Below, in pieces: positions 2,176-25,525 of a stretch of 25,527 nucleotides of DNA. Location of the stretch: positions 1 to 25,527 of IMG/VR virus record IMGVR_UViG_3300020160_000250. One strand, written 5' to 3'. A program made the position numbers and the translations under genes. Under the pieces are notes generated by a model. It did no database searches. It was not told the DNA's origin and worked only from the letters and a program-made list of their open reading frames with translations. The stretch is from a virus. Its lineage: Duplodnaviria > Caudoviricetes. How positions within the stretch are numbered: the stretch's first letter is position 1; the number at the start of each line of letters is the position of its first letter.

Positions 2176-5100
2176 ATGGATAATCTTGCCGACTTCCGTC
2201 GCCAGTACCCTCAGTACAACGATATGAGCGACGTCGAGTTGGCGGATGCGATCCATCGTAAATTTTATTCGGACCTACCAAAAGCGGAGGTTTTTAAGAA
2301 GCTCGCGGTAAAACCCGCCGGGGCTGTTGCTGTGCCTACCGCCGCTGCGCCTGCTGCTCTGACGCCTGCCCAGAAACAAGCTGTTGCCCAGAAAACAGCA
2401 GAACGCGGTTTCTTTGGTGGTGTGTACGATGCCGTCATGGGTAACGAGATCGAAGCCCCCGAAGTATATACCGCTAAAGAACTAGCTGCACGGCAAAAGC
2501 AGATTGCGGCTACGCTTAAGAAACTTGGGGTAGACGCTAAAAAATACGACACACTCGCTGTAAGTGCGGCCAAAGAATATCAAGGTCCTAATGCTCCGGA
2601 TCGCGCTCTCGGTTTTACCCAGCAAGCACAGGCTGCGCGTAGTGAAGCAATAGCCCTCCAGAACGAGCTAGATAGCATTACCAAGACGGGGCTAAAGGTT
2701 CCAAAAGCAAATAAGTTTCGTGAGACTCTTAGCTCTACTTTACGTGTTCCTGCTGAAATATTTGCCGGTATCCCCGGTGCCATTGAGGCTACTGCGGGTT
2801 ACGGCCTTGGGACATTTGGCATTCCCGGTGCCGAGACCCTTAAAGCTGCCGGTAAGTCTGACATGGCCCGTGCAAGTGAGCTAGCCGCGCAAGGCTTTGG
2901 CGCACAGGGTGAAGCCCTTAAATATGACGCCACTGCAAAGTTCCTTGCGGATGTCGGGGGTGGTGTAGGTAGTGTTGGTACGTTCTTAGGCCCCGGCCTG
3001 TTGTCCAAGGCTGCTGGTGCGGGTAAAGGTCTGGTAGGCGCAGCGCGGGCAGAAGCTATTGCCAAAGCCGCCCGCCCGCTTGAGTACGGGCTTGGCACCG
3101 TGCAGGGTGCGCAACAGGGCATCCAAGATATTCAAGCTACTGAGCAGCGGACAGGTAAAGTAATCCCCGACGCAAATGCGTTTACTGCTATCGTGTTAAG
3201 CGCAGGTATGGGCGCTACTGAAGTTGGCGCGGCAAGACGTATTTTTGAAAGTCTCCCTGTCGCTAAACGCGGTGCTACTTTGGATACCGTGACCGATATC
3301 GTGCGCCGGGGTACCGCTGGCCGTGTAGACCCTAAAGTGATTAGCGAAGCTGTTAAACGTACTTTGAACACGATTGAAAGTCGTGCGGTTGGTCGTGTGG
3401 CTGTGCGTGGCGCTGAAGAAGCACTTCAAGAAGGTGGCGTACAGTTCGGCACTAATGTGATTGCCAAGGGGCTATACGACGAAGACCGTAACGTTACAGA
3501 AGGCGTCGGGTATAGTATGCTCATCGGCGGTATCGTTGGTAGCGGTCTGCGCGGCGTCACTGAAGTTGCACAGAAGGCCCTTGGTAAAGCCAAGGCGCAG
3601 GGGGTAGACCCTGCGGCTGTTATGGCAGAGTTTCAGCGTCTTGCAGCGGAACAAGCTGGTAGGGTTATGAAGGCTAACCCCGGCATGAAGCAGAACGATG
3701 CTGTTAAGTTTGTCGAGGACAACGCTGAAGCACTATTTAACCTCGCTACTGCTAACATAGTATCGGGAACCAAAGGAGTTCTAGATGTCCCAGTTACAAC
3801 TGGTGCCGGAGTGGATGACCTCGGAGGAAGTGGAGCAGGCACTGCTATTGATCGAGAATCCTTGGCGACCGAAGCCGGTACTACAGTCGCTGGAGCGGAT
3901 GACGACGGACGATTGGACAGGTCTGTATCTGGCGTATCAGTTCCTACAACTGGCACGGGAACGGGAGTCGGTACACTAATTGAGCCTACGGCTAAGCAAG
4001 TTAAAGCCATGGTGCCTACCATTGAGCAGGCGTTTAAAGCCTCGGCTCTTGATTTTGAAGAAGCTTATGCGGACGTCCTCGATAAGAACAACAAGCTAAA
4101 CTCCCAGCAGAAGACACTGGCTGCGCGTATCCTAGTCCAAAGCCCCGAAGTCGATCCGTATGATGCCATTGGGTCAGTGCTTGATCGTGGCTTGGAGACA
4201 CTTCTTGGTAAGCCAGTTCCCAAGAAGGTACCGTCTACCTCGCGCACTACGGTTACACCTACTACGCCTACTACACAGGCTACGCCTGTACGTGATGACA
4301 CCATAATTGGTGCTATATACGATGCTAAGAATAACGAGCGTAACCCGTTAACTTATGAAGATTTGATCGACCAGCTTGATTTCCTAGAAACTCTGGCGAC
4401 CGAAGGTAAGCTTACACCAGAACGGTTAGCATTTTCTGACTTTGGGCAAGTGCAAGACACAGGTACTCTTACTGGCCTTAAAAACAGAATTGCAGCCGAC
4501 CCAGTGGGCACCATACAGCGACTTCGTGAATCTGCGGAGCTTAATAACCAACGGGATATGGCTGAAGCTGCACCCGTTGAAGCTGTACAGGATGAAGCTG
4601 CACCTGCCGGTACGCCCGTTGAACTGGTGCCATATAAAGATATTGCGCTGTCTACCATGTGGTACAAAGGCGGCTCTCAAACCGCTGTTGCGGGTAATGA
4701 AAAGCCTGCATGGGTTCCGGATGATGTACTTGAGTATGATATACCCGGACGCCCAAGACCCACTGGTGATCAGTCTGATGTACGGGTCGAGCAATTTACC
4801 GCCAAAGACGGGACTGTAGGCACAAAGGTATCGGTGCTGGTTCCTACTATTGATGAAGTTTACGGCGACCGAGGTAATACCGCCGCTGCTACTATATGGC
4901 TGCGTGACGCTGACCCCAAGGATATAGACAGCGCAGTTCAAACTGCCGAAGCCGTCGCACGATGGGTTGCTGATCCGAACAACTCAAAGGCTGCTGATGG
5001 CCCGCTAAATCAGATTGCGGATAAGGCAATTTCATTTATTGCTACGCAGTCCGCCCCGGCATCCGTTGCTGCACCTACTACGGCAGGAGCAAAGCCCTCA

Positions 5101-8100
5101 AAGGCACGCGGCCCAAGTAAGGTTAAGGCGGCTGGGGATAAGGGAGCCAAAGCTAAGGCTGTTAAGAAAGTCATTAACAGCAAGCCCGGTAAGACTGTGG
5201 CCGAGAAAATCTTCAACATGGCACAGGCAGAAGTCGATGCCATGCCGAAAGAAGAACTAGATGAGCAGGCTACACCGTATAGCCCTGAGTACGAAACAAT
5301 CCGAGCTACTCCGGGTATCAATACGAAGCGCATGGCCAAGATGCTTGGCCCGCAGCTTTATGGTGACCCAACCAATATGGGTCAGGTTTGCATCAAGGAA
5401 GTATTGCAGAACTCGTTCGACGCCACCCGCACTGCGGTGGATAAGGGGCAGATTACGCAGGGTAAGATCGAAATATCTATCTCGCGGGATGAGCGCACCC
5501 TGACGGTTAAAGACAATGGTATCGGTATGACACCCGAACTGTTGGGCGGTAAGTTCCTCCAGATTGCTGGTACGGACAAGGAAGGCGACAAGAACGCTGG
5601 CGGCTTCGGTATTGCCAAGATGCTCTTTCTGTATGCCAACAAGAACATCCGCGTGGTTACTGCGCGTGATGGGCGTATTGCTGAACTTAACGCTACAGGC
5701 GAACAGCTTTTTGATGGACTGGATGACCCTGATGCCCGCCCGTTCATAGATATTCGTGACTTAGAACCCGCTGACTATGCGGCGTTCCCTAACGGCCATG
5801 GTACCATTATCCAGTTGACTATCCCTGAGGAGTCAGGGGATTACAAAATTAACCCGCTACCGTGGCAAGCACAAAGTGTTCCGTCTTTAATGCTTAGCCC
5901 GCTATTTGCGGATATTGAGGTGTCGTTCTCGGACTATACAGGTTCGCGTGCTTATGCGGTGGACATTGGTAGCAACTTCCCAATCCAAGATTACACCCAG
6001 TTTGTTGGGGTCAAGTTCCCATGGGGTACCGCCAAGGTCTATGTAACACGTAACCAAACGACCCAAAAATACGGTCAGAATATGCACATCCTATCGAACG
6101 GGTTGTGGCAATTCTCAAACTCGGTTAGTAAAGACCCATCCAACATATATAGCGATCCCGTTCCGTACCGGTTCTACGTAGACATCGTACCGTCTGTGAA
6201 GCCAGATGAACCGGGCTATCCATTTAACTTTAACCGCCAGAGTTTTACCGACGACGCCAAGGCCGACTTTAATAAAGTTAAGGCGTATATCGACGCCGTA
6301 TATGCGTATAAGAGTCGTGCGGGTGAGGCTACGTCTTTTGGAGTTATCCAGTACTTCGATGAAAATGGGCAGCTTACTGCACCTATAGACCTCACACCTG
6401 ACATCCCAGTCGTAGATACGGCCTTTACGCGGATTGCAGAAGGTGACATTATTAAGATAGACGATGATGGTTCGTTATTGGTCAACGGGCAACGTATGCC
6501 TGAGCTAACCCCTGAAGAACTAAAGGCGGGCATCCCAAGCGCAAATGACCTAAGAATAAACCCTGATCTAATTGATACCAATCTGGTTATGGTCCACGAC
6601 AACGCTGACGTAGTTATAAAGTCTACCGGCGAGAAAATGCCGATACCGGACTTTATGCGCCGCCAGTTTGGCGAGCGCTTTGATGACTTCATGAGCTTTA
6701 ATGGTGAGGCATTCCTCAAGCTACGTGACGAAGTTGCGCGTGTTATGGGTTATCCCGGCTTACGCGATGAAGCTATCGGTGTATCATTTGACCCTGAGTA
6801 TCGTGGTGTCTCGATCCGGCTACCATTCTCTGGTAGCTTTATTAACCCACTGGTACCCAAGTATGCGGACGGATTGCGCGCTGGGTACGGCATCTTCGGG
6901 ACTATGATCCATGAGCTTGCACACTACAAGGAGCGTAGCCATAATGCTAGATTCCCAGCAGAGTATCAGGATATAGACTTAAACATGGAAGCTGACACAG
7001 GGTTCGCCTATCGTCGGTTTAAGGACAATTTTGCAGACACGATTGCGGCAGATTACGCCGACATCGTTAAACTTGGCGTGGAGCTTTTTAATGGCCAAAA
7101 CTCAGACATTAGCATCGAGTATCGCGGAAACAAATTTACGGATGGCGATGCAGAGCAAACATCCGATGGAGATGGCGATAGGAACGCTGGGGACGTACGC
7201 GGACCTAGCGGAGAAGGAAGCACCGGGGAATCCCTACTCAGCCCATCTTATGAAGGTCGTGACCGTACTGGAGAACGGGGCGACCTTGGAGCAGGCGATG
7301 GAGGTGGCACGGAACCCCTAACTGACGCCAATGTTGAGGAGGCTGTTTCGGTTAAGCTGACTAAGGCGCAGATCAAACGCCTTGAAGCTGCGGCTGGTAT
7401 CCGTGGCATGGAAGTCAACAGGCTACAGAAGCGCATCATCCAGAGCCGTAACGAGAACGAAACCAAGGGGCTTATCAAGCGCCTTGCGGAAGCTATGCGG
7501 AACCCGGATGCCAATAGTGGTATCATAGCATCCCTTACCCAGAGTATGCCGGTAGGGGGCTATAGGCTCATACTTGGCTTCCAGCAAATCGAAGACATCT
7601 TCCGTCTGGCTAAGCTCGCCGGTATGAAGTCGATTGGTAAGATCGACACTATCATGCGGGAAGAATATATCCCGTACGTCAATCGCATCGTGCGGCGAGC
7701 CAGTACGGTTGAGCAAGAATGGACAGCGTTTGCTTCGCGTGACCCAGATGGCAACACGGCGTTGGATGACAACATCATGTACTCAAACATGATCGACGCA
7801 GACCCAAGCTTGGCTGTGACTGCGGCGGAGTATATGCGTATCGACCCCAAGCTTAAAGAACTTGAGGCTAGCTTAGCTACGGAAGCTGACGCAAATAAAC
7901 GGAAGAGCCTGAAAGGGCAGATCACCACGCGTAAGGATGACATCAAGCGGCTGTACTTTGGTGGCACACTTAAAGATACAAACGGTGACCCTGTCCTTGA
8001 CGAGGATGGAAACCCAGTTGTCGTCCTAGGTTGGAACAGCTTAGCGCCAGAAGGTAGAAAAATCTTCAAGGCTGCTCGTGATTTCCACCGCGCCAATTTC

Positions 8101-10710
8101 AATGAGCATTACCGCCTGCTTATGCAGCGGATTGACGACGCCAAGTTCGACTCGAACGACGCTGTGAAGCTTAAGTCATCCATCGAGCAGATGTTTAATA
8201 AGGCTCGGGAACGCACGATCTACTTCCCCGTTAAACGATTCGGGGAGTACTGGCTCAGTGTAGGTAATGACTTCTACATGCGGGAGACCCCCGCAGAACT
8301 GAAAGCGCTACAGCGTAGGCTGAAGAAGGAAGGCGAAACCCGTGCGATGGTAACGGGTACTAGCCGTGCGGACCTACGTAACAAGGTCGCTAGTAATGAC
8401 GCCAGTGCAGCGCTCAAAGGTATTCTGGATGCCCTCGATGGTGGCAATACCGCCAAGAGCAACGGGAAGCCTAGGCTTGAGAGGGACGACATGGAGGGCC
8501 TGCGGGACCTCGTATTCCAGATGTACCTAACGGCACTACCTGAGGCAGATATGCGTCGGCGTTTTGTTCACCGTAGGTTTGTAACTGGTTTCAGCACCGA
8601 CTCGCTTCGCACGTTTGCTGCTACGGCAGTAGCGTCAGCGAACCAACTTGGGCGTCTGGCGTATAACTATAAGTTCCAGAACGTCATTGAAGAAGCTAAA
8701 GCGGAATCCGAAAGCGACGAACTAACCCCTTACCGCGATGCACTCCGGCTTGAAATCGAGGAGCGGGTGAAAAGCGCAGTGGCTCCTGAGTCGAACAGCA
8801 TCCTCCTTAACGCCATCAATAATGCGATAGCGTTCGGGTCTAAGCTTACATTCTACCACCACCTGTCTTCAATGGCATCTGCGGCGATTAACCTTACCCA
8901 GCTACACACTCTAGGGCTTCAAGTCCTGTCAGGTGAATTTGGTGAGGCCAAGACGGCAGCTATGGCTGCTCGGTACACAACTTCGTTATTGGCGGGCCGG
9001 GAAATCCCTAACCCGTTCCGCGACGAGGATGGTAACGTCGGGCTGCAAGCTCCGGAGTTTAAGTTCCAGAACAGCGCCTATATGCGTAACCTTAAGAAGA
9101 ACGACCCAGACCGCTACAAGCAGACGATGGCTGCATGGGAATACGCGCAAGACCATGACGTCATTGAGAGCACTTTCGCTTCGAGTAGCCAGCTGTATGA
9201 GCGTAGCAACACACCTACCGGGGACTTTAATTTCCGGCAGGCGGTACGCCGTGGTGAAGTATTGACCGCAGGTCAGCGGGCTGCTGCCAATACCATGAGT
9301 GCTATGGGTTTCTTGTTCCATTCGACTGAGACAATCGGGCGCAGTGTCATGTATATGTCCAGCTTCGATCTAGCGTATGAGCGGGCAATCGGTAAAGGTA
9401 AGACGCCGGAGCAAGCGGGTATAGAAGCCCGTAAGTTAGCGACTGACCTAACGAATAAGGCCATGTTCGACTTTACCAACTGGAATAAATCACGTTTTGC
9501 TAAAGCCCCTGCGACTCGTTTTGCGCTCCAGATGACTTCGTATATACATTCGCTATCGTCGCTAATGTTGCGTAGCTTTGTCGGTATGCTCCCGTACTTT
9601 AACAAAGAAGGCAAAGCAGCCGCAGCCCGTGTATTCTTCGGTTCTTCTGCCGTCACCGCGCTCTACGGTGGCGTACAGGCTACCCTGTTTGCTCCTTTAA
9701 TTATGGGTGCATTCACCGTCGCTAAGTATGTCGAAAGCTTGTTTGAGGATGATGACGATGAGGAAGAGGAAATCAAGGAAGGTGTCCTCGGTGAGAAAAC
9801 CGTCGAGCGCCAGTTCCTCAAATACGCAGACGAGAACGGGAACGAACTAGGTAAGAAGGATATGGATTACTATATCCGGGCGACCTTTATCCCTGAGACG
9901 TTTGGTAGGGAAAGCACCCTACAGAACGCACTTGGTCTCAGCGACAAGGCAGCAGCCAATTTGGCAACCGCTGCGGATAGCGGCATACCGGCAATCTTCG
10001 GTGTGGATATATCTAACTCCGTGGCCATGGGTGACTTGCCGTTTATCTGGAGTAATGTGCAGGTGAAGGGCGACACACCTGAAGTCCGAGCTTATGAAGC
10101 CGTGGCAAGGATGGCACTTGGTCCGTTTGGTAGCGTGGCTATTTCGTACCGTAAAGCGATTGACGCGTGGGAAAAAGGTGATGTCCAGCAGGCCGTGGAG
10201 TTGGCGGTTCCTGCAATTATCCGTAACCCACTGAAAGCCCTACGCCTCCAAGAGGAAGGGTTGAAGATCGGGAAAGACAAGGACATTCAGCTTAAGGACC
10301 CCAGCTACTATACCGGTGGTAAGACCTTTTTGCAGTCCCTCGGCTTTAAGGACGCTGAGACAACGCGTAATATGGAGCTTGATATAATGGCAGGTGCCGT
10401 TGAGCGGGAAGTCGCAGCGCAGAAGACCGAGCTACTTGATCGACGGTACCGTGCTATCCTTAAGTATGATGCAGACCCATCGGATAAAAACGAGCTTGAG
10501 TTGCAGCGGGTGGAATACGACATCAACGTATATGATGAGAACTACCCATCGAACTCAATATCCAAAGATACCAAGCGGAAGTCGTTCAAAGCTAAGGAGC
10601 AAGACGCTACTGGTAAAGCCTACGGTTTGGAGGTTAATCCGAAAATCCCGATCAGGGAAGTGCTACAGGAAGAGCGTATTCAGCAGCTTCTGGAGGCTGA
10701 AGGCCAATAA
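2176..10710 (+). CDS. Giant polyvalent (probably virion-ejected) protein, 2844 aa: GHKL ATPase + HExxH zincin peptidase + PLxRFG + LPD39-like C-terminal region
   Basis: GHKL motifs: EVLQNSFDA (5398), DNGIGM (5512), GGFGIA (5599), HGT (5797). Hsp90 middle-domain-like PFNFNRQ (~6220-6240). HELAHYKERSHNARF (6910). YFPVKRFGEY (8221) matches the PLxRFG motif of phage polyvalent proteins. N-terminal FRRQYPQYNDMSDVELAD and EEALQE motifs are also typical of such proteins. Confidence 0.85.
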   Translation: MDNLADFRRQYPQYNDMSDVELADAIHRKFYSDLPKAEVFKKLAVKPAGAVAVPTAAAPAALTPAQKQAVAQKTAERGFFGGVYDAVMGNEIEAPEVYTAKELAARQKQIAATLKKLGVDAKKYDTLAVSAAKEYQGPNAPDRALGFTQQAQAARSEAIALQNELDSITKTGLKVPKANKFRETLSSTLRVPAEIFAGIPGAIEATAGYGLGTFGIPGAETLKAAGKSDMARASELAAQGFGAQGEALKYDATAKFLADVGGGVGSVGTFLGPGLLSKAAGAGKGLVGAARAEAIAKAARPLEYGLGTVQGAQQGIQDIQATEQRTGKVIPDANAFTAIVLSAGMGATEVGAARRIFESLPVAKRGATLDTVTDIVRRGTAGRVDPKVISEAVKRTLNTIESRAVGRVAVRGAEEALQEGGVQFGTNVIAKGLYDEDRNVTEGVGYSMLIGGIVGSGLRGVTEVAQKALGKAKAQGVDPAAVMAEFQRLAAEQAGRVMKANPGMKQNDAVKFVEDNAEALFNLATANIVSGTKGVLDVPVTTGAGVDDLGGSGAGTAIDRESLATEAGTTVAGADDDGRLDRSVSGVSVPTTGTGTGVGTLIEPTAKQVKAMVPTIEQAFKASALDFEEAYADVLDKNNKLNSQQKTLAARILVQSPEVDPYDAIGSVLDRGLETLLGKPVPKKVPSTSRTTVTPTTPTTQATPVRDDTIIGAIYDAKNNERNPLTYEDLIDQLDFLETLATEGKLTPERLAFSDFGQVQDTGTLTGLKNRIAADPVGTIQRLRESAELNNQRDMAEAAPVEAVQDEAAPAGTPVELVPYKDIALSTMWYKGGSQTAVAGNEKPAWVPDDVLEYDIPGRPRPTGDQSDVRVEQFTAKDGTVGTKVSVLVPTIDEVYGDRGNTAAATIWLRDADPKDIDSAVQTAEAVARWVADPNNSKAADGPLNQIADKAISFIATQSAPASVAAPTTAGAKPSKARGPSKVKAAGDKGAKAKAVKKVINSKPGKTVAEKIFNMAQAEVDAMPKEELDEQATPYSPEYETIRATPGINTKRMAKMLGPQLYGDPTNMGQVCIKEVLQNSFDATRTAVDKGQITQGKIEISISRDERTLTVKDNGIGMTPELLGGKFLQIAGTDKEGDKNAGGFGIAKMLFLYANKNIRVVTARDGRIAELNATGEQLFDGLDDPDARPFIDIRDLEPADYAAFPNGHGTIIQLTIPEESGDYKINPLPWQAQSVPSLMLSPLFADIEVSFSDYTGSRAYAVDIGSNFPIQDYTQFVGVKFPWGTAKVYVTRNQTTQKYGQNMHILSNGLWQFSNSVSKDPSNIYSDPVPYRFYVDIVPSVKPDEPGYPFNFNRQSFTDDAKADFNKVKAYIDAVYAYKSRAGEATSFGVIQYFDENGQLTAPIDLTPDIPVVDTAFTRIAEGDIIKIDDDGSLLVNGQRMPELTPEELKAGIPSANDLRINPDLIDTNLVMVHDNADVVIKSTGEKMPIPDFMRRQFGERFDDFMSFNGEAFLKLRDEVARVMGYPGLRDEAIGVSFDPEYRGVSIRLPFSGSFINPLVPKYADGLRAGYGIFGTMIHELAHYKERSHNARFPAEYQDIDLNMEADTGFAYRRFKDNFADTIAADYADIVKLGVELFNGQNSDISIEYRGNKFTDGDAEQTSDGDGDRNAGDVRGPSGEGSTGESLLSPSYEGRDRTGERGDLGAGDGGGTEPLTDANVEEAVSVKLTKAQIKRLEAAAGIRGMEVNRLQKRIIQSRNENETKGLIKRLAEAMRNPDANSGIIASLTQSMPVGGYRLILGFQQIEDIFRLAKLAGMKSIGKIDTIMREEYIPYVNRIVRRASTVEQEWTAFASRDPDGNTALDDNIMYSNMIDADPSLAVTAAEYMRIDPKLKELEASLATEADANKRKSLKGQITTRKDDIKRLYFGGTLKDTNGDPVLDEDGNPVVVLGWNSLAPEGRKIFKAARDFHRANFNEHYRLLMQRIDDAKFDSNDAVKLKSSIEQMFNKARERTIYFPVKRFGEYWLSVGNDFYMRETPAELKALQRRLKKEGETRAMVTGTSRADLRNKVASNDASAALKGILDALDGGNTAKSNGKPRLERDDMEGLRDLVFQMYLTALPEADMRRRFVHRRFVTGFSTDSLRTFAATAVASANQLGRLAYNYKFQNVIEEAKAESESDELTPYRDALRLEIEERVKSAVAPESNSILLNAINNAIAFGSKLTFYHHLSSMASAAINLTQLHTLGLQVLSGEFGEAKTAAMAARYTTSLLAGREIPNPFRDEDGNVGLQAPEFKFQNSAYMRNLKKNDPDRYKQTMAAWEYAQDHDVIESTFASSSQLYERSNTPTGDFNFRQAVRRGEVLTAGQRAAANTMSAMGFLFHSTETIGRSVMYMSSFDLAYERAIGKGKTPEQAGIEARKLATDLTNKAMFDFTNWNKSRFAKAPATRFALQMTSYIHSLSSLMLRSFVGMLPYFNKEGKAAAARVFFGSSAVTALYGGVQATLFAPLIMGAFTVAKYVESLFEDDDDEEEEIKEGVLGEKTVERQFLKYADENGNELGKKDMDYYIRATFIPETFGRESTLQNALGLSDKAAANLATAADSGIPAIFGVDISNSVAMGDLPFIWSNVQVKGDTPEVRAYEAVARMALGPFGSVAISYRKAIDAWEKGDVQQAVELAVPAIIRNPLKALRLQEEGLKIGKDKDIQLKDPSYYTGGKTFLQSLGFKDAETTRNMELDIMAGAVEREVAAQKTELLDRRYRAILKYDADPSDKNELELQRVEYDINVYDENYPSNSISKDTKRKSFKAKEQDATGKAYGLEVNPKIPIREVLQEERIQQLLEAEGQ

Positions 10711-10740
10711 AAACCCCCGGCTGAGTGAGCAACCGGGGGT
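10706..10740 (-). terminator. Intrinsic (Rho-independent) terminator of the - strand arm / candidate sRNA
   Basis: Minus strand reads ACCCCCGGTTG-ctcact-CAGCCGGGGGT (11-bp stem with one G-U pair) followed by TTTTATT. It lies at the point where the two arms converge. Confidence 0.85.
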
Positions 10741-10781
10741 AGTGAGTGATGCGATGCACCGATAGGAAGGAGCAAACTTCC
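10706..10781 (-). ncRNA. Candidate ~76-nt antisense regulatory small RNA (anti-SD hairpin + anti-primase-start segment + terminator)
   Basis: Sequence GGAAGUUUGCUCCUUCC-UAUC-GGUGCAUCGCAUCACUCAC-U-terminator. Complementary to several RBSs in this window and to the primase start. A promoter-like element lies 7 nt upstream. Confidence 0.6.
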
Positions 10782-10787
10782 GAGGGC

Positions 10788-10816
10788 TATATACTTACAT
10801 CCGCCATACTCGTAAA
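10788..10816 (-). promoter_or_regulatory. Putative sigma70-type promoter for the candidate sRNA
   Basis: TTTACG (10816-10811), a 17-nt spacer, then TATATA (10793-10788). The predicted +1 near 10781 coincides with the first G of the 5' hairpin. Each hexamer matches consensus at only 4/6. Confidence 0.45.
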
Positions 10817-10989
10817 CCCCTAATCCCACTTTCGATTGAGGGCTTGACCAATATCTTGATACGTAGGCGTTTGATGACTACCATCAGTTGTGCCCGAGCG
10901 CGTGGTACATGGAGGCAAGGGAAGAACAAAGAAGTGCCCCTCTGGAATGCGCGCCAGTTAACTTCATAGTCTATACCCTCAATCTGCAT
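10795..10989 (-). CDS. Small basic hypothetical phage protein (64 aa), C-terminal GxRVWR motif
   Basis: Overlaps the primase 3' end (coupled arrangement). Ends in GIRGLRVWRM, a motif type seen in small phage proteins, possibly DNA-binding. Confidence 0.65.
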   Translation of the reverse strand: MQIEGIDYEVNWRAFQRGTSLFFPCLHVPRARAQLMVVIKRLRIKILVKPSIESGIRGLRVWRM

Positions 10990-13822
10990 CTATTATACCA
11001 TCTTCCTTGGCGTACTCATTGACGCTTACAAAGTCTGGGTCCAGCTTGAACCACAGGCAGTGGACGTTATCCCCTGAGACAGCCATACCCTTGGACATAC
11101 GCTTGTTGTCACGATTCACTAACCGACCTTGTGCCGCTAACTTGTCTAGAGTGTCGTTGTAATTGATCTGGTACTTGACGCAGTACTCCCTAAACGGTTT
11201 GGCAATAAGGAACATCATCTCGGTATCTGGTTCGATACGGATCAGCAACTCACCCTTTGGTTCGCGTATAGGCGCAGATGGCAGTTTGGTGCGGCGGTCT
11301 GACTTGTCGTTCACAACTAAGATATTCTGCATATGGCGATACAGGTAGTCACCTATAACCTGCTCAACACCGTTAAGTGGTGCCTTGGTATCTTGACGAA
11401 GCCGCTCAACTATATCGCAAGCGTGTCCGTAGATGCGCTTCATATTCCAGTCGATCAAGCCGCACTTCTTAGCGAGGATACCACCTTCGATATTAGCTGC
11501 TACTGTGGCTGACCAGAAGCGCTCCTTAGGTAGAAGCTGAAGCTCACGGTCAATCTTGTCCTGCATCTGGAGACACTTACCCACCACGTATTCCATGTTG
11601 TTTAGCACATAGCGAATGTAAACAGGTCCGGCGTGGCCGTAATTAGAGAACAGCACCTTATCAAATAACTCTTTGGCATTTGCGGTATTGATGGAGTCTA
11701 CCAACCCTATCGGGTATTCGATAAGGCGCATAAGCTCACCTTCTGGGTTATCCTTCAAGATCGACAACTTCTCAACAAACGAAGAGTTCGACGTCGAAAC
11801 CGTAATGTTCTGCCATGTGGTATTGTTCTCACGCAGTTCGTTGGCCCCAGCCAACATGCGTTCCTTACCCTTACCGTTCGACAGCGAGTATAAGAAGTCT
11901 GAGTATTCCTTAGATGTTACGTTGGTAAGCTCGTCCATGGTGGCTGGCAGATTGTTGAGGACGCCGACCCACTGAAGCTTACCGTTCATGGTGTCGATTT
12001 CTTTCAAGCGCAGTTGTTGGGGATGCCCATAGACGCTGTTCACCATGTTCAAGATGGTGGTCTTACCCGTACCAGAGTGGGAGTTAAACAGGTTGATGAC
12101 GGCCCCTGTCTGGTTAAGAAACTTTAGCAGCGGTGACCCGAACGCGCTTAGCGCAGCAAATGCTTGGGCTTCCATGCCCTCCTCGCCATACAAGCTCCAC
12201 ACGCTTTTCCATTTATCCATCGACCCAACAGGACCAATAAACTTAGCCAGCTTACCCGTTGCCTTAGACGGCGGCGAATAGATATTGCCGTCGATGGTCA
12301 TCTCCTGATCGCCTAAAACAAACCGGCTGTTGCCGTCTACCCAACCAAATTGTTGCCTCATGATTTCTGCTTTCTGTCTATCTTGTAAGTTTTCAGCGGA
12401 TGCGTGTACATATTCCATCAGCGTATCGAAACGCTTGCCGTAGCTATACACCCCGTTGGCGGAGAGTATCTTGCGAAGCTCATCCTTCTGGGTAACCTTG
12501 GACATGGCAACGGTAAATTCCCGTAAACCGTCTTGCGGTAGGTGTACGCGCATAAGCGCGGAGTCGCCCTCACCGGGATCGTACATACGTTTCACAACAT
12601 AGAAATCGTTTGCGTATACCATCTTCGGTTCGACTTCTTCGACTGAATCCTTGGGAGGCTTCTTCCAAACACCACCGCCATCGCCCCTGTAGAACGGGAA
12701 CGGATACTTAGGGATGTCGATATGCTCGACCACACCCTCTTCAGTTTCTACCTTGATGAAGTCCTCGCTGGACTCCTTGACCACCTTGCCCAGTTCCTTG
12801 GGGCCTTTGATTTTGTCGAGGTGTGGACACCCCTCACATAGCTCTTGGTTAACGCTACGAAACTTGGCGCAGCTAGTTGACTTGCGGATCGTTTCAACTT
12901 TCCGGTCTATGGACTCTGGATCGTAGTCTGGGTGACCCTTCGACATCATATGGACCGCAGTGTCTGCGTCCTCGCACATAGCTGCCACTGACAGCGCGTA
13001 GAACCATTCGTAGTAACTAACGGTATCTTGGTTCGTATATGCGTGTAGGAGTTGGTTACACCCATCGCCCCTAGCTGTGCGCTGCATGATTTGTTTGAAG
13101 TTGTAGCCTATACCATTTGTCAGTGCCAGTTGGCGTGGTGACGGTTGGTAATCCTCATCGAAGATTGTCGGCTGCGCCTTGACCCCAAAGATGGCGCGCA
13201 CCTCCTCAAAGGAAATCGGCTTACCCACATGGATAAACTCAACCAGACGAGGCTCTTCCTCTTTGAAGTTAAACGTACCGGGCACACGTAGGATACGTGC
13301 CACTTCGAACACCGCGTTATCGACGTAGAAGTTCTGGGTTTGGCACACTTCCTTGAAGCGCTCTGCTACAGGTTCCCAGTCCCGCCGTGTGATTTCTTCC
13401 GTAAGCGCCCAGTATACGTGGATGCCACCACCTGAGTTTACTATGGTAGGAGTAGGAAGACCGACGGATTCACAAAAAGTACGCAGCGCCGCTATGGCAG
13501 CAGTTTGGTCTACGTAACCATCAGGTCGTCCAGTCTTCGGGTCGGGTTCAGCTTTGGTCGGGCCGCAGTCCACATCGAGCCAGAACGCCTTGAGACCAAG
13601 GACATTCTCCTTCTTGCGGTTGTCACCAGTTGCATACTTGGCTACCCCAAAGAATACATTTCGGCCAGCATCGACGAAGCGCTCTATTAAAGCATCTGCT
13701 TCTTCCCGCGTAGCTACAAGTTCTTGGCGGACATCGGCGTCTTTCCCCGTCCCTTTGATACCTGTGATAGCGAACCAGCCCCCCGCTGGCTGCACGAGGC
13801 TTAAGAGATCATATTGTTGCAT
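10979..13822 (-). CDS. Primase-helicase: AEP/RepB-type primase + Cys-rich PriCT/PriL-like region + DUF927/Cch-like helicase
   Basis: AEP motifs FWLDVD, SGGGIHVYW and RILRVPGTFN. Cys cluster (SCAKF...CEGCPH). RQQFGW, Walker A SGTGKTT, Walker B TMDE and GKGKER/STSN typical of DUF927 helicases. Preferred start is the ATG at 13822 (GGTGAG SD-like 7 nt upstream); the alternative is the GTG at 13834. Confidence 0.85.
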   Translation of the reverse strand: MQQYDLLSLVQPAGGWFAITGIKGTGKDADVRQELVATREEADALIERFVDAGRNVFFGVAKYATGDNRKKENVLGLKAFWLDVDCGPTKAEPDPKTGRPDGYVDQTAAIAALRTFCESVGLPTPTIVNSGGGIHVYWALTEEITRRDWEPVAERFKEVCQTQNFYVDNAVFEVARILRVPGTFNFKEEEPRLVEFIHVGKPISFEEVRAIFGVKAQPTIFDEDYQPSPRQLALTNGIGYNFKQIMQRTARGDGCNQLLHAYTNQDTVSYYEWFYALSVAAMCEDADTAVHMMSKGHPDYDPESIDRKVETIRKSTSCAKFRSVNQELCEGCPHLDKIKGPKELGKVVKESSEDFIKVETEEGVVEHIDIPKYPFPFYRGDGGGVWKKPPKDSVEEVEPKMVYANDFYVVKRMYDPGEGDSALMRVHLPQDGLREFTVAMSKVTQKDELRKILSANGVYSYGKRFDTLMEYVHASAENLQDRQKAEIMRQQFGWVDGNSRFVLGDQEMTIDGNIYSPPSKATGKLAKFIGPVGSMDKWKSVWSLYGEEGMEAQAFAALSAFGSPLLKFLNQTGAVINLFNSHSGTGKTTILNMVNSVYGHPQQLRLKEIDTMNGKLQWVGVLNNLPATMDELTNVTSKEYSDFLYSLSNGKGKERMLAGANELRENNTTWQNITVSTSNSSFVEKLSILKDNPEGELMRLIEYPIGLVDSINTANAKELFDKVLFSNYGHAGPVYIRYVLNNMEYVVGKCLQMQDKIDRELQLLPKERFWSATVAANIEGGILAKKCGLIDWNMKRIYGHACDIVERLRQDTKAPLNGVEQVIGDYLYRHMQNILVVNDKSDRRTKLPSAPIREPKGELLIRIEPDTEMMFLIAKPFREYCVKYQINYNDTLDKLAAQGRLVNRDNKRMSKGMAVSGDNVHCLWFKLDPDFVSVNEYAKEDGIIDAD

Positions 13823-13838
13823 TGCATCACTCACCGTT

Positions 13839-13856
13839 GCGGGGGGAAACCCCCAC
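13839..13856 (-). promoter_or_regulatory. GC-rich hairpin in the primase 5' leader
   Basis: Minus strand gtGGGGG-TTT-CCCCCcgc immediately upstream of the primase initiation region. There is no U tract, so a translational or structural role is more likely than termination. Confidence 0.45.
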
Positions 13857-13880
13857 TTATCGTTTGCTCTTTGTGAAAGC

Positions 13881-14114: not shown

Positions 14115-15049
14115 GCGAAGTCATCCTCTTCTTCTTCCTCTTCCTTAAGCCACTCACCCATTACAGATGCCAGTTCGGGCTTTACCTCAGGAGTAACCTT
14201 CGGCTTAGCGGCCCGTTTGACTGGGGTGGCTGGCGCTTCGTCTTCATCGTCGTCACCGAACGGGTTAACGCTCACAGTGGGGGCAGCGATAGCAACAACA
14301 GGAGCAGGAGCAGCAATAGCCTTAGTAGTGTCTATAGCACCAGCAGTCAGCATGGTGTACTTCTCTGTGGCGGGATCGTCTTGCGCTGCGTCCACAAGCG
14401 ATGCTTCCATCTCGGTCAGGTGGCGGATAGGTTTGAACCCAACCTTGGCCGTGTCTGCTTCGGTATCGTAGACAAGGCGTGTTACCACCGTGTCGAGGGC
14501 ATGTTTGCTGGCAAGCATAAACTTCTTGTAGCCTTCGAAGCCGTAGACGTTGCCATTGTTGTCGCTGAATAGCGAAGCGCCCGGAATAGCAATCTGGTAC
14601 AAATCACCAGACGGGTCACCGGCAACAAGGACTGCGAGGCGGCGTTCATACCGGCAAGCCTTCTTATTGTTAGGCGCGGAACCCTTAACGTCCTTGGGGC
14701 AACCACGGCAAGCCCTACTCTGCTTGTTGCTAGCTCCTGCTTCTGGCGCAACACCATCGTTTGACCAGCAGTCAGGTAGTGTGGCCTTGGCGTCTTTATC
14801 GTAAGCAGCCGCATAGAATTTACGCGAAGGCTCAACCAGCCAGTCTACGATAATGACGTCGAGCGTATCACTAGCGGCCTTACCAATCTGCTCACCGTTG
14901 ATGACGCGCTTGAAAGTGCGGCCATTGCTAAGCTGGATACGGCGCATGGTGCTCCCGCTACCGCCGCTGGACATACGGTCCATACGACGAGACTCACGCT
15001 GCACCGTGGCGACATTAGAGGGTTCTTCAAATATGGTTATACTGCTCAT
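14111..15049 (-). CDS. Putative single-stranded DNA-binding protein with Cys motif and acidic tail
   Basis: Acidic C-terminus ending in an aromatic residue (EEEEEEDDFA), like phage SSBs. CWS...CRGCP...C motif. Located in the replication module. Start placed at ATG 15049. Confidence 0.65.
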   Translation of the reverse strand: MSSITIFEEPSNVATVQRESRRMDRMSSGGSGSTMRRIQLSNGRTFKRVINGEQIGKAASDTLDVIIVDWLVEPSRKFYAAAYDKDAKATLPDCWSNDGVAPEAGASNKQSRACRGCPKDVKGSAPNNKKACRYERRLAVLVAGDPSGDLYQIAIPGASLFSDNNGNVYGFEGYKKFMLASKHALDTVVTRLVYDTEADTAKVGFKPIRHLTEMEASLVDAAQDDPATEKYTMLTAGAIDTTKAIAAPAPVVAIAAPTVSVNPFGDDDEDEAPATPVKRAAKPKVTPEVKPELASVMGEWLKEEEEEEDDFA

Positions 15050-15462: not shown

Positions 15463-15496
15463 GGTTTGCTCCTTGCTCGGCTATTGCCGTAGTCTT

Positions 15497-17324: not shown

Positions 17325-17341
17325 AGTTTGCTCCTAGTGGG

Positions 17342-18811: not shown

Positions 18812-18823
18812 TTCATTTGCTCC

Positions 18824-21324: not shown

Positions 21325-23137
21325 AGCTTGCTCCTATTTTGCTTTCACAATTCAACGGTAGCGTTGGTGCCCACTTGGGGCGCATGCGCATGCATGCTTC
21401 CACAAACGCACGAGCCTTGTCGGCTTCCTCAGTAGGGGCAATCACCCCTATCGCGTCATGCACGGTCATCACCACGCGGTAGCGCCGTGCGATCATCAGC
21501 ATCTGTTCACCTATTATAATACGTGCAAGGGCTTGGCATACGTTCTCTACTAGCTTCCCACCGTATATACGGGAGAGCAACACGGACTTGCCCTTCTTCT
21601 GGTCGTAGACCATCTCAGCTTTCTGCCCCTCTTCTGCTTTTAAGCGGCGCACGTTGTCGTACTTAACGAACAGGCCATTGGGTAACTCAATGCCATCCTT
21701 ACCGTGGACTACCAGCACATCGTTATGGCCCAAGGTGGTGTGTGTACCTAAAGATATAGAGTCCAGCACATCGTTCGCGTCATCCCACAGGTCGGGTATC
21801 TTTGGGTAGGTCTCACGATACACTCGGATAATACGCCTACACTCGGCCATTTCCATATCGACGCCGAAGGTCTTTAGCTGCGCCTTAAACTTGGCAGCAC
21901 CCATCCCGTAACCACAGCCAAGGATGGTAGTCTTCCCCACAAAGCGTTGGTCATCCGTCACCTCCTCGACAGGCACAGTATAGATAGAGCTTGCCATAAT
22001 CTTGTAGACATCCTCGCCTCGGTCAAACGCAGCAATAAGGTCATCTTGCCCAGCCAGCCACGCTAAGGTTCGCGCTTCGATCTGGCTGCTATCGCAGTCG
22101 ATGAACGTGTAGCCCTCTGGGGCCAACATCGCCTTTTTCAGTGGTGACTTGCGCGGTAGGTTCTGGAGGTTGACCTTATCGTCCCCTCCCCATCGCCCAG
22201 TATGTGCAGCATAGTAACGTAGCGGCACAGGTAATGTGCCTCGCTCTGCGATCTTAATGAACCGTTCGGTGCGTGTCTCTTCCAGCGTAGACTTAACGCC
22301 CAGCCGCGCAGCCGCTACCGCTTGCACTCGCGGGTCGGGATGCTCAAGTAATGCCTTGAACCCCTCGTCACTCTTGGCGAAGGCGAATGCTTCCTTGCCT
22401 GTCTTGGCGCTCACCTTCACAGGTGGGACGACACCCATGGCGCTCAGTAAGCAAGCCAGCTTAGGGTTGGACATCAGCGCGTCCTTATCTACCACGATAG
22501 CATCCATGAGTTTGGCTTTTTTGCTCCTCACATTAGACACGTGGTTTGTGAGGACTTGTTTGTCTAAAACTAGCACTGGCTCGGTGAACATGCGTATCGT
22601 CAGGTCGATCAACCGAAACTCAACCGCTGGGAAACCCACAGCTATGCGTTGGAACAGGTCATAGGTCAGGTCCGCATCGTTGATACAGTATGTGCCATAT
22701 CGGGACATCTCTTTTGGCGTGAAGTCCAGTCGCCGTTTACCTAGCGCATTGATTACCTCTGTGCCTTTGACACCTAGTTTATACCGCTCGGCTGCTTTGG
22801 CTAAACTGTTACCAGCGTCAGGCCCGTCGATAGCTCGTAGCATAGAGAGCGTGTCCACAATCCGCTTGGGTCTAATATCGAAGTGCCAGTTCAAGATAGC
22901 CATATCGAAGACAGCGTTGTGCGCCACAGCGATAGCGTTGTCCCAGTCGAACTGATCCAGCCACCGTTTGGTTTGCGCCTTCGGGCCGGAGAAAAACTTA
23001 GCTTCCCCGGCGTCCACCTTTACTGCTACGCCAGTAACCTCAAACTCGGAGTCCCGGATATACTCCTCCGTTGTCATCTTAGAGAGACTAAACTTCTGGC
23101 TATAGAACGTCTCGAAGTCGATGGTTAGGATTTGCAT
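21314..23137 (-). CDS. polA: DNA polymerase family A with 3'-5' exonuclease (Leu762 type)
   Basis: Exo motifs DFET, HNAVFD and YCINDA. Polymerase motifs HTGRW, NLQNLP, DSSQIEAR (A), RFVGKTTILGCGYG (B) and TVHDA (C). Start placed at ATG 23137 (TAATG overlap). Confidence 0.93.
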   Translation of the reverse strand: MQILTIDFETFYSQKFSLSKMTTEEYIRDSEFEVTGVAVKVDAGEAKFFSGPKAQTKRWLDQFDWDNAIAVAHNAVFDMAILNWHFDIRPKRIVDTLSMLRAIDGPDAGNSLAKAAERYKLGVKGTEVINALGKRRLDFTPKEMSRYGTYCINDADLTYDLFQRIAVGFPAVEFRLIDLTIRMFTEPVLVLDKQVLTNHVSNVRSKKAKLMDAIVVDKDALMSNPKLACLLSAMGVVPPVKVSAKTGKEAFAFAKSDEGFKALLEHPDPRVQAVAAARLGVKSTLEETRTERFIKIAERGTLPVPLRYYAAHTGRWGGDDKVNLQNLPRKSPLKKAMLAPEGYTFIDCDSSQIEARTLAWLAGQDDLIAAFDRGEDVYKIMASSIYTVPVEEVTDDQRFVGKTTILGCGYGMGAAKFKAQLKTFGVDMEMAECRRIIRVYRETYPKIPDLWDDANDVLDSISLGTHTTLGHNDVLVVHGKDGIELPNGLFVKYDNVRRLKAEEGQKAEMVYDQKKGKSVLLSRIYGGKLVENVCQALARIIIGEQMLMIARRYRVVMTVHDAIGVIAPTEEADKARAFVEACMRMRPKWAPTLPLNCESKIGASYGG

Positions 23138-23471: not shown

Positions 23472-23788
23472 CTGCTTTGCTCCCTCAGTCTGCGTTTCCT
23501 ATTCTCAAAAAACTTAAGCAGTGCCTTGAGTAGTGCAGCCGAGCCTTCCTTGGCGTTCTTATTCCACTTGCGTTCGGAGTCGCTGTTCAGTCCCGTAGAG
23601 TTAGCGTTAGGCTTCGCGGTTGTTGCATGTTCTACCTCTGGTCGCACCACTTCGACCTTCCTCTTTGTGCCCTTCTTTATCTTATCGCGCAGGGCGATAA
23701 CACGTTTCACATCCACACCATGATAAGTCGCGATATACTTATTGTCGGTTATGTAGCTCATTGTCTTGAGGATATCTTGGTCGGTCAT
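23468..23788 (-). CDS. Hypothetical basic protein (106 aa)
   Basis: AGGAG SD and ATGA overlap with the VRR-NUC gene. Confidence 0.65.
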   Translation of the reverse strand: MTDQDILKTMSYITDNKYIATYHGVDVKRVIALRDKIKKGTKRKVEVVRPEVEHATTAKPNANSTGLNSDSERKWNKNAKEGSAALLKALLKFFENRKRRLREQSR

Positions 23789-24102: not shown

Positions 24103-24124
24103 GTTGTTTGCTCCTTGTTTATGT

Positions 24125-25078: not shown

Positions 25079-25269
25079 CAGTAGTCTCCTTCTTCTAATT
25101 TCTTCATTGCAATAACGTAGGCGTCTAGCTCGTCACGAGCCGCGATGTTGGGAAGCACATACTTCAAGCCAGTGCGGCCATCTCGGTAATACACTGCGAA
25201 GTATGTTGTCCCCGCATATCCTCTCCGATGCCATGCCGACACCTCGTATATCTGGTGCTCACCACTCAT
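25078..25269 (-). CDS. Hypothetical protein (63 aa)
   Basis: Overlaps both neighbours in a coupled arrangement. Confidence 0.6.
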   Translation of the reverse strand: MSGEHQIYEVSAWHRRGYAGTTYFAVYYRDGRTGLKYVLPNIAARDELDAYVIAMKKLEEGDY

Positions 25270-25525
25270 AGGACTTGAGGATGTTGTCGAGCTTGTCCTT
25301 CATATCGGTGCGGGTATCCTCGTCGCCCTTGATGTCTTCGATGTCCACACCAGCGATGGCACGCTCCAGCCCACGCCTTGCTTCTTCTAGCGTAGGGTCA
25401 CGGGTGATGTTGAGGTGGGTCAGCATACCGCACATCTCTTGCGCGTTGGTGATGAAGGTGTCGTGCCAGCGGCGCTTGTCCTCGTCCCCGTCCTCTGGTT
25501 CGGTCAGCTTCTCTGACATACGGAA
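25259..25525 (-). CDS. C-terminal part of a helical phage protein, possibly DUF3150-like (5'-truncated by window)
   Basis: The frame is open to the window edge. The LTHLNITRDPTLEEAR pattern recalls DUF3150-like phage proteins; tentative. Confidence 0.55.
   Translation of the reverse strand, partial: FRMSEKLTEPEDGDEDKRRWHDTFITNAQEMCGMLTHLNITRDPTLEEARRGLERAIAGVDIEDIKGDEDTRTDMKDKLDNILKSYEW

Follow-up and report, generated by a model that had tools for sequence, protein, structure and literature searches.

Why is the translation start of a phage primase gene found again, inverted and nearly intact, beyond the far end of that gene? The question is raised by a virus record of 25.5 kb (IMG/VR record IMGVR_UViG_3300020160_000250, Caudoviricetes), whose 25,527 nucleotides are called the window here, and in which plus-strand positions 10742-10760 match minus-strand positions 13834-13816 at 17 of 19 places. 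The answer proposed here is that the copy lies inside a conserved element, a predicted small RNA (sRNA) gene of the phage with two seeds (minus strand, 10706-10781, ~76 nt), and that the copied start is the second of these seeds. This RNA probably acts in trans: it would pair with the ribosome-binding sites (RBS) of early and replication genes that belong to the phage itself, and likely lowers their translation, so that a single small RNA is likely to repress an entire class of the phage's genes.

The inverted match, on which a preliminary description of this DNA was built, lies where that description placed it. The likeness continues beyond the 19 nt (10742-10767 against 13809-13834, 22/26), and the arm at the gene spans the Shine-Dalgarno (SD)-like site and the AUG of the primase, from -12 to +7 relative to the ATG at 13822. 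Compared with shuffled sequences, the bare match is near chance: in four dinucleotide-shuffled windows, pairs that match at 17/19 or better numbered 3, 0, 2 and 0, and for the fixed 76-nt region 17/19 was attained in one of 40 shuffles. The predicted binding at the primase start is above chance, with a net energy of -19.4 kcal/mol against -4.6 +/- 2.7 kcal/mol for 30 shuffled leaders, none of which was as good. What exceeds chance in the primase match is its landing place, not the match itself, and it is the context, a conserved RNA element, that makes the 17/19 match real. The window holds a second inverted pair (9009-9031 and 14245-14267, 20/23), both arms of which are coding, in the gene of a 2844-aa protein and in a 316-aa gene; both encode an NPF-x-D-x-D peptide, and this pair looks like a coding coincidence.

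The RNA element and its predicted promoter

Three hairpins are predicted on the minus strand from 10781 to 10706. Hairpin 1 (10765-10781) has a 5-bp stem and a 7-nt loop, UUUGCUC (10776-10770), and the third hairpin is an intrinsic terminator (10706-10740), with an 11-bp stem (10740-10713) and a U tract that is present on the minus strand alone. The fold z-score of 10700-10800 is -3.4 on the minus strand and -3.7 on the plus strand. The element was compared across 236 loci, 180 of which carry the primase gene, a 64-aa gene and flanks, and 113 of these are distinct. The layout of loop hairpin, variable middle and terminator was parsed in 104 of the 113; nine loci were unparsed, five were mis-parsed and then removed, and the remaining 99 loci form 55 lineages at 90% primase identity (labelled L below).

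Hairpin 1 is preserved as a structure. In 43 aligned lineages (the other 12 of the 55, whose loops differ in length or sequence, are excluded), the loop hardly changes, and the stem shows compensated variation: double changes occur at five of six pairs (23 cells), none of 500 shuffles is as good, and slid controls reach at most 6 cells. A scan with the 17-nt hairpin motif gave 119 matches, of which 88 are located downstream of the 64-aa gene and one more is truncated where its contig stops; the other 30 fall in coding sequence of other viruses and lack the layout of the element. The strand asymmetry of the terminator is weak across lineages (33 vs 22), and an A tract that could act for the opposite strand is found there in 2/55. 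In L114 the loop sequence is repeated within the terminator loop, and L103 and L018 have an additional 5' segment ahead of the loop hairpin.

The 64-aa gene (10795-10989, minus strand; 116 homologues), the last on the replication strand, appears to host the promoter of the RNA. The predicted -35 box, TTTACG (10811-10816, minus strand), lies within its Gly-Leu-Arg (GLR) codons, and the predicted -10 box, TATATA (10788-10793, minus strand), follows 17 nt below it, right after the stop codon. Among the 49 lineages with the GLR motif (six of 55 are excluded for its lack), the Leu codon is TTA or TTG in 49/49, against 582/3898 (15%) of the Leu codons in the primase, and GGT precedes TTA in all 40 TTA cases, giving TTTACG. 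The dinucleotide TA stands 16-17 nt after the -35 box in all 49 rows as judged by eye, with a one-base register shift in the nine TTG lineages, and the register of the -10 box tracks that of the -35 box across lineages. This pattern points to a sigma-70-type promoter kept within the codons of the 64-aa gene, and it would put the 5' end of the RNA close to the base of hairpin 1, ~7 nt downstream of the -10 box. The promoter signature has no other consistent place in five genomes, and for this reason it does not tell the timing of the RNA. In two of the genomes the replication strand has a canonical sigma-70-type promoter within its early region, at G003:C1 43175 (-) and G004:C1 2314 (-), nearer to consensus than that of the RNA.

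No Pfam or PHROG family was found for the 64-aa protein. It has a confident alpha/beta model, for which Foldseek gave no match at E<=0.001; the best comparison was VIA (Z 4.8), and a lead to DUF7303 in the Atlas reached 0.85 only. This protein occurs in close linkage with the RNA, for which it could serve as a chaperone or regulator.

The two seeds and their predicted targets

The loop and the 3' stem strand of hairpin 1 are antisense to a AGGAGCAAA tag, and GGAGCAA is found directly ahead of six minus-strand starts in the window. These tags are located at 15466-15472 before a 134-aa gene (start 15462), at 17328-17334 before an SNF2 helicase gene (start 17324), at 18817-18823 before a DUF6378 gene (start 18811), at 21328-21334 before a gene for a sigma-70 region 4 protein (start 21324), at 23477-23483 before a 69-aa gene (start 23471), and at 24108-24114 before the gene of a Hjc/VRR-NUC-like nuclease (start 24102), all on the minus strand. 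At the sigma-70 region 4 gene the predicted binding is -15.7 kcal/mol, reached by none of 30 shuffles. This larger signal, the loop at 10770-10776 antisense to the tag at six other starts, was overlooked by the preliminary description. A further 14/16 match to the 5' half of the RNA (25296-25311, minus strand; -18.6 kcal/mol, 0/30 shuffles) lies 27-42 nt upstream of the start at 25269 and is a possible extra target.

The tag is distributed by strand and by position. Across the 55 lineages, AGGAGCAA stands 0-8 nt (mostly 2-5 nt) before a start in 116/123 cases in the replication sense against 2/14 in the structural sense, and on the antisense strands in 0/3 and 0/16. In five near-complete genomes, with a crude caller of open reading frames, GGAGCA precedes 56 of 213 genes on the strand of the RNA and 2 of 238 on the other. 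Loop and tag also change together in some lineages: the loop UCGCUCC is paired with GGAGCGA sites in L141, L144, L153 and, partly, L154, the loops UAGCUCC and AAGCUCC are paired with GGAGCU sites in L155 and L151, and AAC sites make up 4/7 in lineages with a GUU loop vs 8/111 in those with a UUU loop.

The primase gene has no tag at its start and is matched instead by the second seed (10742-10760, minus strand), which is antisense to its SD and AUG (13816-13834, minus strand). This gene (10979-13822, minus strand) encodes a DUF927 primase-helicase of 947 aa, and its start is most likely the ATG at 13822-13820, rather than the GTG at 13834, because the database product has 947 aa and the family consensus begins at residue 5. 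The product is a primase-helicase and not a Rep initiator.

In part of the family, the second seed follows the changes in the primase start. The duplex of the cognate RNA middle with the primase leader is in the best 3% of own-locus windows and the best 3.5% of distant leaders in 36/99 loci and 16/55 lineages, by cut-offs that were chosen after the table was seen; in the clade of the window, 11/11 lineages pass. Within the 8-nt core, changes in the mRNA are compensated by the RNA in L005/L009/L036/L039 (the GUAAUG group), L032 and L026-L030, or kept by G-U pairs in L019 (at two places) and L016, and no core change in the mRNA is left without compensation or G-U. In a cross-table, the compensated alleles (the L005 group, L032, the L026 group, L049 and L038) have the cognate leader as best or within ~0.2 kcal/mol of it, and seeds of the consensus type of the window bind neighbouring leaders of the clade equally well or better. 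The middle of the RNA is also put to other uses: in the L038 group it pairs ~45 nt upstream of the primase AUG, and in L037 and L012 its site is immediately upstream of the tag that precedes the 134-aa gene. The sought covariation across homologous phages is thus present as compensatory and G-U changes in 16/55 lineages and has no counterpart in the 39/55 without primase pairing.

These results also bear on how much of the antisense control proposed earlier for the primase start can be kept. Pairing in trans is favoured by the promoter signature, the terminator, the covarying hairpin and the compensatory changes in relatives, and it would make repression of the primase an expected outcome; the primase does not hold up as the main target, being addressed by the variable second seed of a multi-target RNA. 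The proposed contact of the RNA with the GC hairpin of the primase leader (GGGGG-TTT-CCCCC; 13839-13856, minus strand, directly 5' of the SD-like site) is not borne out, as this hairpin and the terminator both remain closed in the co-fold. The leader hairpin has counterparts with other stem sequences in many relatives and may be a cis element itself. The block likeness noted earlier between the terminator loop and the upstream GAGCAA of the leader is collinear, and pairing is possible there, by eye and in one sub-clade alone.

Features of trans-acting sRNAs in general, a class that often works with Hfq or ProQ, are found in this element: a promoter and an intrinsic terminator, both as read from sequence, a conserved secondary structure, and, partially (for the primase in 16/55 lineages), short imperfect complementarity that covaries with distant translation-initiation regions.

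The RNA alleles do not always follow the phages that carry them. The alleles of L059, L063, L066, L068 and L035 differ only slightly from the ones found in a distant clade, their flanks are unrelated, and their seeds fit the primase of that clade best. The RNA of L059 is 92% identical to that of L002, and the flanks of L059 are at most 76% identical to anything outside its own lineage. This suggests that the RNA is exchanged between lineages as a cassette. A bolder reading, which we regard as speculative, is that of an RNA-addressed regulon: the phages would carry a private barcode in the RBS of their early and replication genes, to be read by a single modular sRNA whose second seed can be swapped. 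This seed would move among distant lineages in a cassette of 80 bases (RNA 92% identical, primases 53-56% identical, flanks unrelated), would fit the primase of a competitor better than that of its new carrier, and may also throttle co-infecting phages.

A possible mode of action and its alternatives

An sRNA that covers an SD represses translation by blocking the entry of the 30S subunit. In the proposed mechanism, the host polymerase would transcribe a short stable RNA from a separate promoter of the host type, located where the replication strand ends. The conserved loop would read the AGGAGCAA tag within the SD of about a quarter of the replication-strand genes, loop contact coming first and pairing then extending by opening of the 5-bp stem. 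The variable middle would serve as a gene-specific seed, which in the clade of the window spans the SD and AUG of the primase-helicase gene, and pairing at the tagged SD sites and at the primase start would block 30S loading. As the RNA accumulates with time and with genome copy number, synthesis from replication genes would be damped and the untagged structural genes would be spared.

Several observations weigh against this account. Pairing with the primase is absent in 39/55 lineages, and 14 of the 16 lineages that pass are within one half of the tree, so that few independent events (about five) are represented. A C-A mismatch is present in the window's own duplex and also in those of L013 and L165, and the seeds of lineage 20 and L035 fit the primase of another clade (-24 to -29 kcal/mol) far better than their own (-12 to -13 kcal/mol). 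On the side of the tag, the L049/L055 clade has a changed loop with unchanged tags, and loop and tag match poorly in L142, L148 and L154. Net binding at the starts 15462, 17324, 18811 and 23471 is modest, -6.6 to -8.6 kcal/mol as computed without loop-loop contacts, and is reached by 2-12 of 30 shuffles. It is modest at these four of the six tags because hairpin 1 must open, and a kissing start or a chaperone would therefore be needed. The -10 box is without its final T in most lineages, and a generic promoter scan of the window does not list the promoter of the RNA.

The same pairings could be made by an element that acts not from its own promoter but as the 3' end of a long replication mRNA, either in cis over a long range or as an sRNA cut from the 3' untranslated region. 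The operon does run into the terminator of the element, and a long mRNA would carry the element 3.05 kb past the primase start. The codon constraint at the promoter speaks against this arrangement, and so do the tagged starts: in the window they reach as far as 13 kb upstream, in full genomes they span the whole early module, and one cis arm cannot serve them; we regard this arrangement as unlikely. A feature of the DNA, such as a pair of inversion sites or an operator, or a chance primase match beside an ordinary terminator, would agree with the 0-3 inverted 17/19 pairs per shuffled window, and it is set against the compensatory changes and constant position at the SD and the strand-specific tags 2-5 nt before starts. 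Inversion, named previously as the alternative at the DNA level, finds no support: the primase shares the orientation of its module (the window and 5/5 near-complete genomes), and no recombinase was found among 117 proteins scanned against PHROGs (82 from G003 and 35 from G005, two near-complete genomes). Such explanations at the DNA level or by chance appear very unlikely.

T4 RegA is a protein translational repressor, and the tag might be bound by a protein of this kind, for example the 64-aa protein, with late read-through of the plus strand offering decoy copies of both the tag and the primase start. The plus strand folds about equally well (z -3.7), with the tag in a loop, no U tail would stop the late transcript here, and among the weak Foldseek matches of the 64-aa model, none of them significant, are RNA-binding domains of the R3H type (E >= 0.38). 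The promoter and the terminator are, however, both oriented the other way, the G-U-preserving states in L019 and L016 fit pairing of a minus-strand RNA, and a protein decoy has no need to follow changes in the primase sequence base by base, all of which leaves this explanation quite improbable. It is harder still to credit that the RNA pairs with the tags and raises translation, as an adaptor or an unfolding helper: the tagged genes belong to the replication core, for which strong early expression is required, but the SD itself is covered by both seeds. Repression by a separately transcribed sRNA with two seeds is the reading that we prefer.

The carrier phages and comparison with known systems

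In the window, structural and ejection genes occupy the plus strand up to 10710, and the replication genes, on the minus strand and ending at 10795, encode DNA polymerase A, the sigma-70 region 4 protein, an exonuclease, the SNF2 helicase, a helix-turn-helix protein, the DUF927 primase-helicase and the 64-aa protein. The 2844-aa protein (2176-10710, plus strand) is of virion type and has DarB-like similarity near residues 2000-2270; its segment near 1070-1165 presumably resembles a GHKL ATPase, and the PHROG match there is unnamed. The relatives of the window phage are uncultured phages of 61-64 kb, and the element is found in many uncultured freshwater phages. No close cultured relative is present among 50,697 phage records, in which the top primase match is 28.6% and the 64-aa protein has no match. 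The 64-aa gene and the element are present on three GTDB contigs of metagenome-assembled genomes from unrelated phyla; no host is named, because these contigs resemble binned phage contigs. In assembled contigs of two runs, at least one of them probably of DNA, relatives ~90% identical occur without a listed strand-changing joint, which bears on neither expression nor inversion.

To our knowledge, the temporal programmes of phages are attributed almost entirely to promoters, sigma factors and protein repressors. If the proposal is true, one RNA would reach an entire class of genes by means of a co-evolving SD barcode, with a primase seed in addition, and this would be a new way of timing the shut-off of replication in apparently lytic phages. 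The system is compact and has natural compensatory pairs, which makes it accessible to reporter assays that need no culture of the phage; it would also be a source of orthogonal sRNA and RBS parts. Rfam gave no matches in the window at E<=1, and no description of the element turned up in full-text literature searches; it may be listed, without function, among the 8,495 candidate RNAs from IMG/VR of PMC10690425. Phage sRNAs, in the passages of a 2025 review that treat them, target either a single gene of the phage or genes of the host (PMC12197685).

The c4 antisense RNA of phages P1 and P7 (RF01695) is, in the portions of the sources used here, a phage RNA that acts in trans on the phage's own genes via short complementary sites, as the window RNA is predicted to do, and its control covers a single immunity operon, icd-ant, in a temperate phage (PMC2864571, PMC8201110). 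Unlike c4, as portrayed there, the window RNA would address a tag that about a quarter of the replication-strand genes carry, and integrase and repressor families were not found among the 117 proteins scanned. The element follows the primase and 64-aa genes, unlike the immI-type operon of c4 with its icd/ant targets, and no antirepressor family was found among the proteins scanned; the c4 covariance model has no match in the window at E<=1. The alphaR8, SisA-D and MmgR RNAs of Alphaproteobacteria share with it a short conserved anti-SD seed for many mRNAs; the parts of the source consulted present them as host chromosomal, Hfq-dependent metabolic regulators that repress upstream of the start (PMC12559287). 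The window RNA differs from what is described there in its seed, in targets with a phage-specific extended SD and in its second, gene-specific seed, and the Rfam model for alphaR8/MmgR/SisA, by which they were compared, has no match in the window.

Betaproteobacterial toxic small RNAs carry an anti-SD motif. They resemble the element in their size class and in being intergenic RNAs with a terminator, and the relevant sections of their description give 57-92 nt, a chromosomal location and unknown native targets (RF02278; PMC4603805); their covariance model has no match in the window. SviR of the phage satellite PLE is, like the RNA proposed here, trans-acting with separate seed regions, and acts on its own mRNAs and on those of the competing phage, according to the portions of the report that describe it (10.1101/2022.04.08.487710). 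Unlike the window RNA, SviR is satellite-encoded, and those portions describe no shared RBS tag.

CopA-type RNAs are cis-encoded, fully complementary counter-transcripts with one target. The likeness to plasmid copy-number control, as suggested in the preliminary description, would hold in effect alone: plasmid RNAs of this class, as treated in the sections used (CopA/CopT, pMV158 RNAII; PMC4485353), limit the translation of a replication protein, and pairing is predicted here over the SD and AUG of the primase. The window RNA is not a cis-encoded counter-transcript like CopA; it lies on the same strand as its target and 3041 nt away from it, its match is imperfect (17/19), and it would act on many targets.

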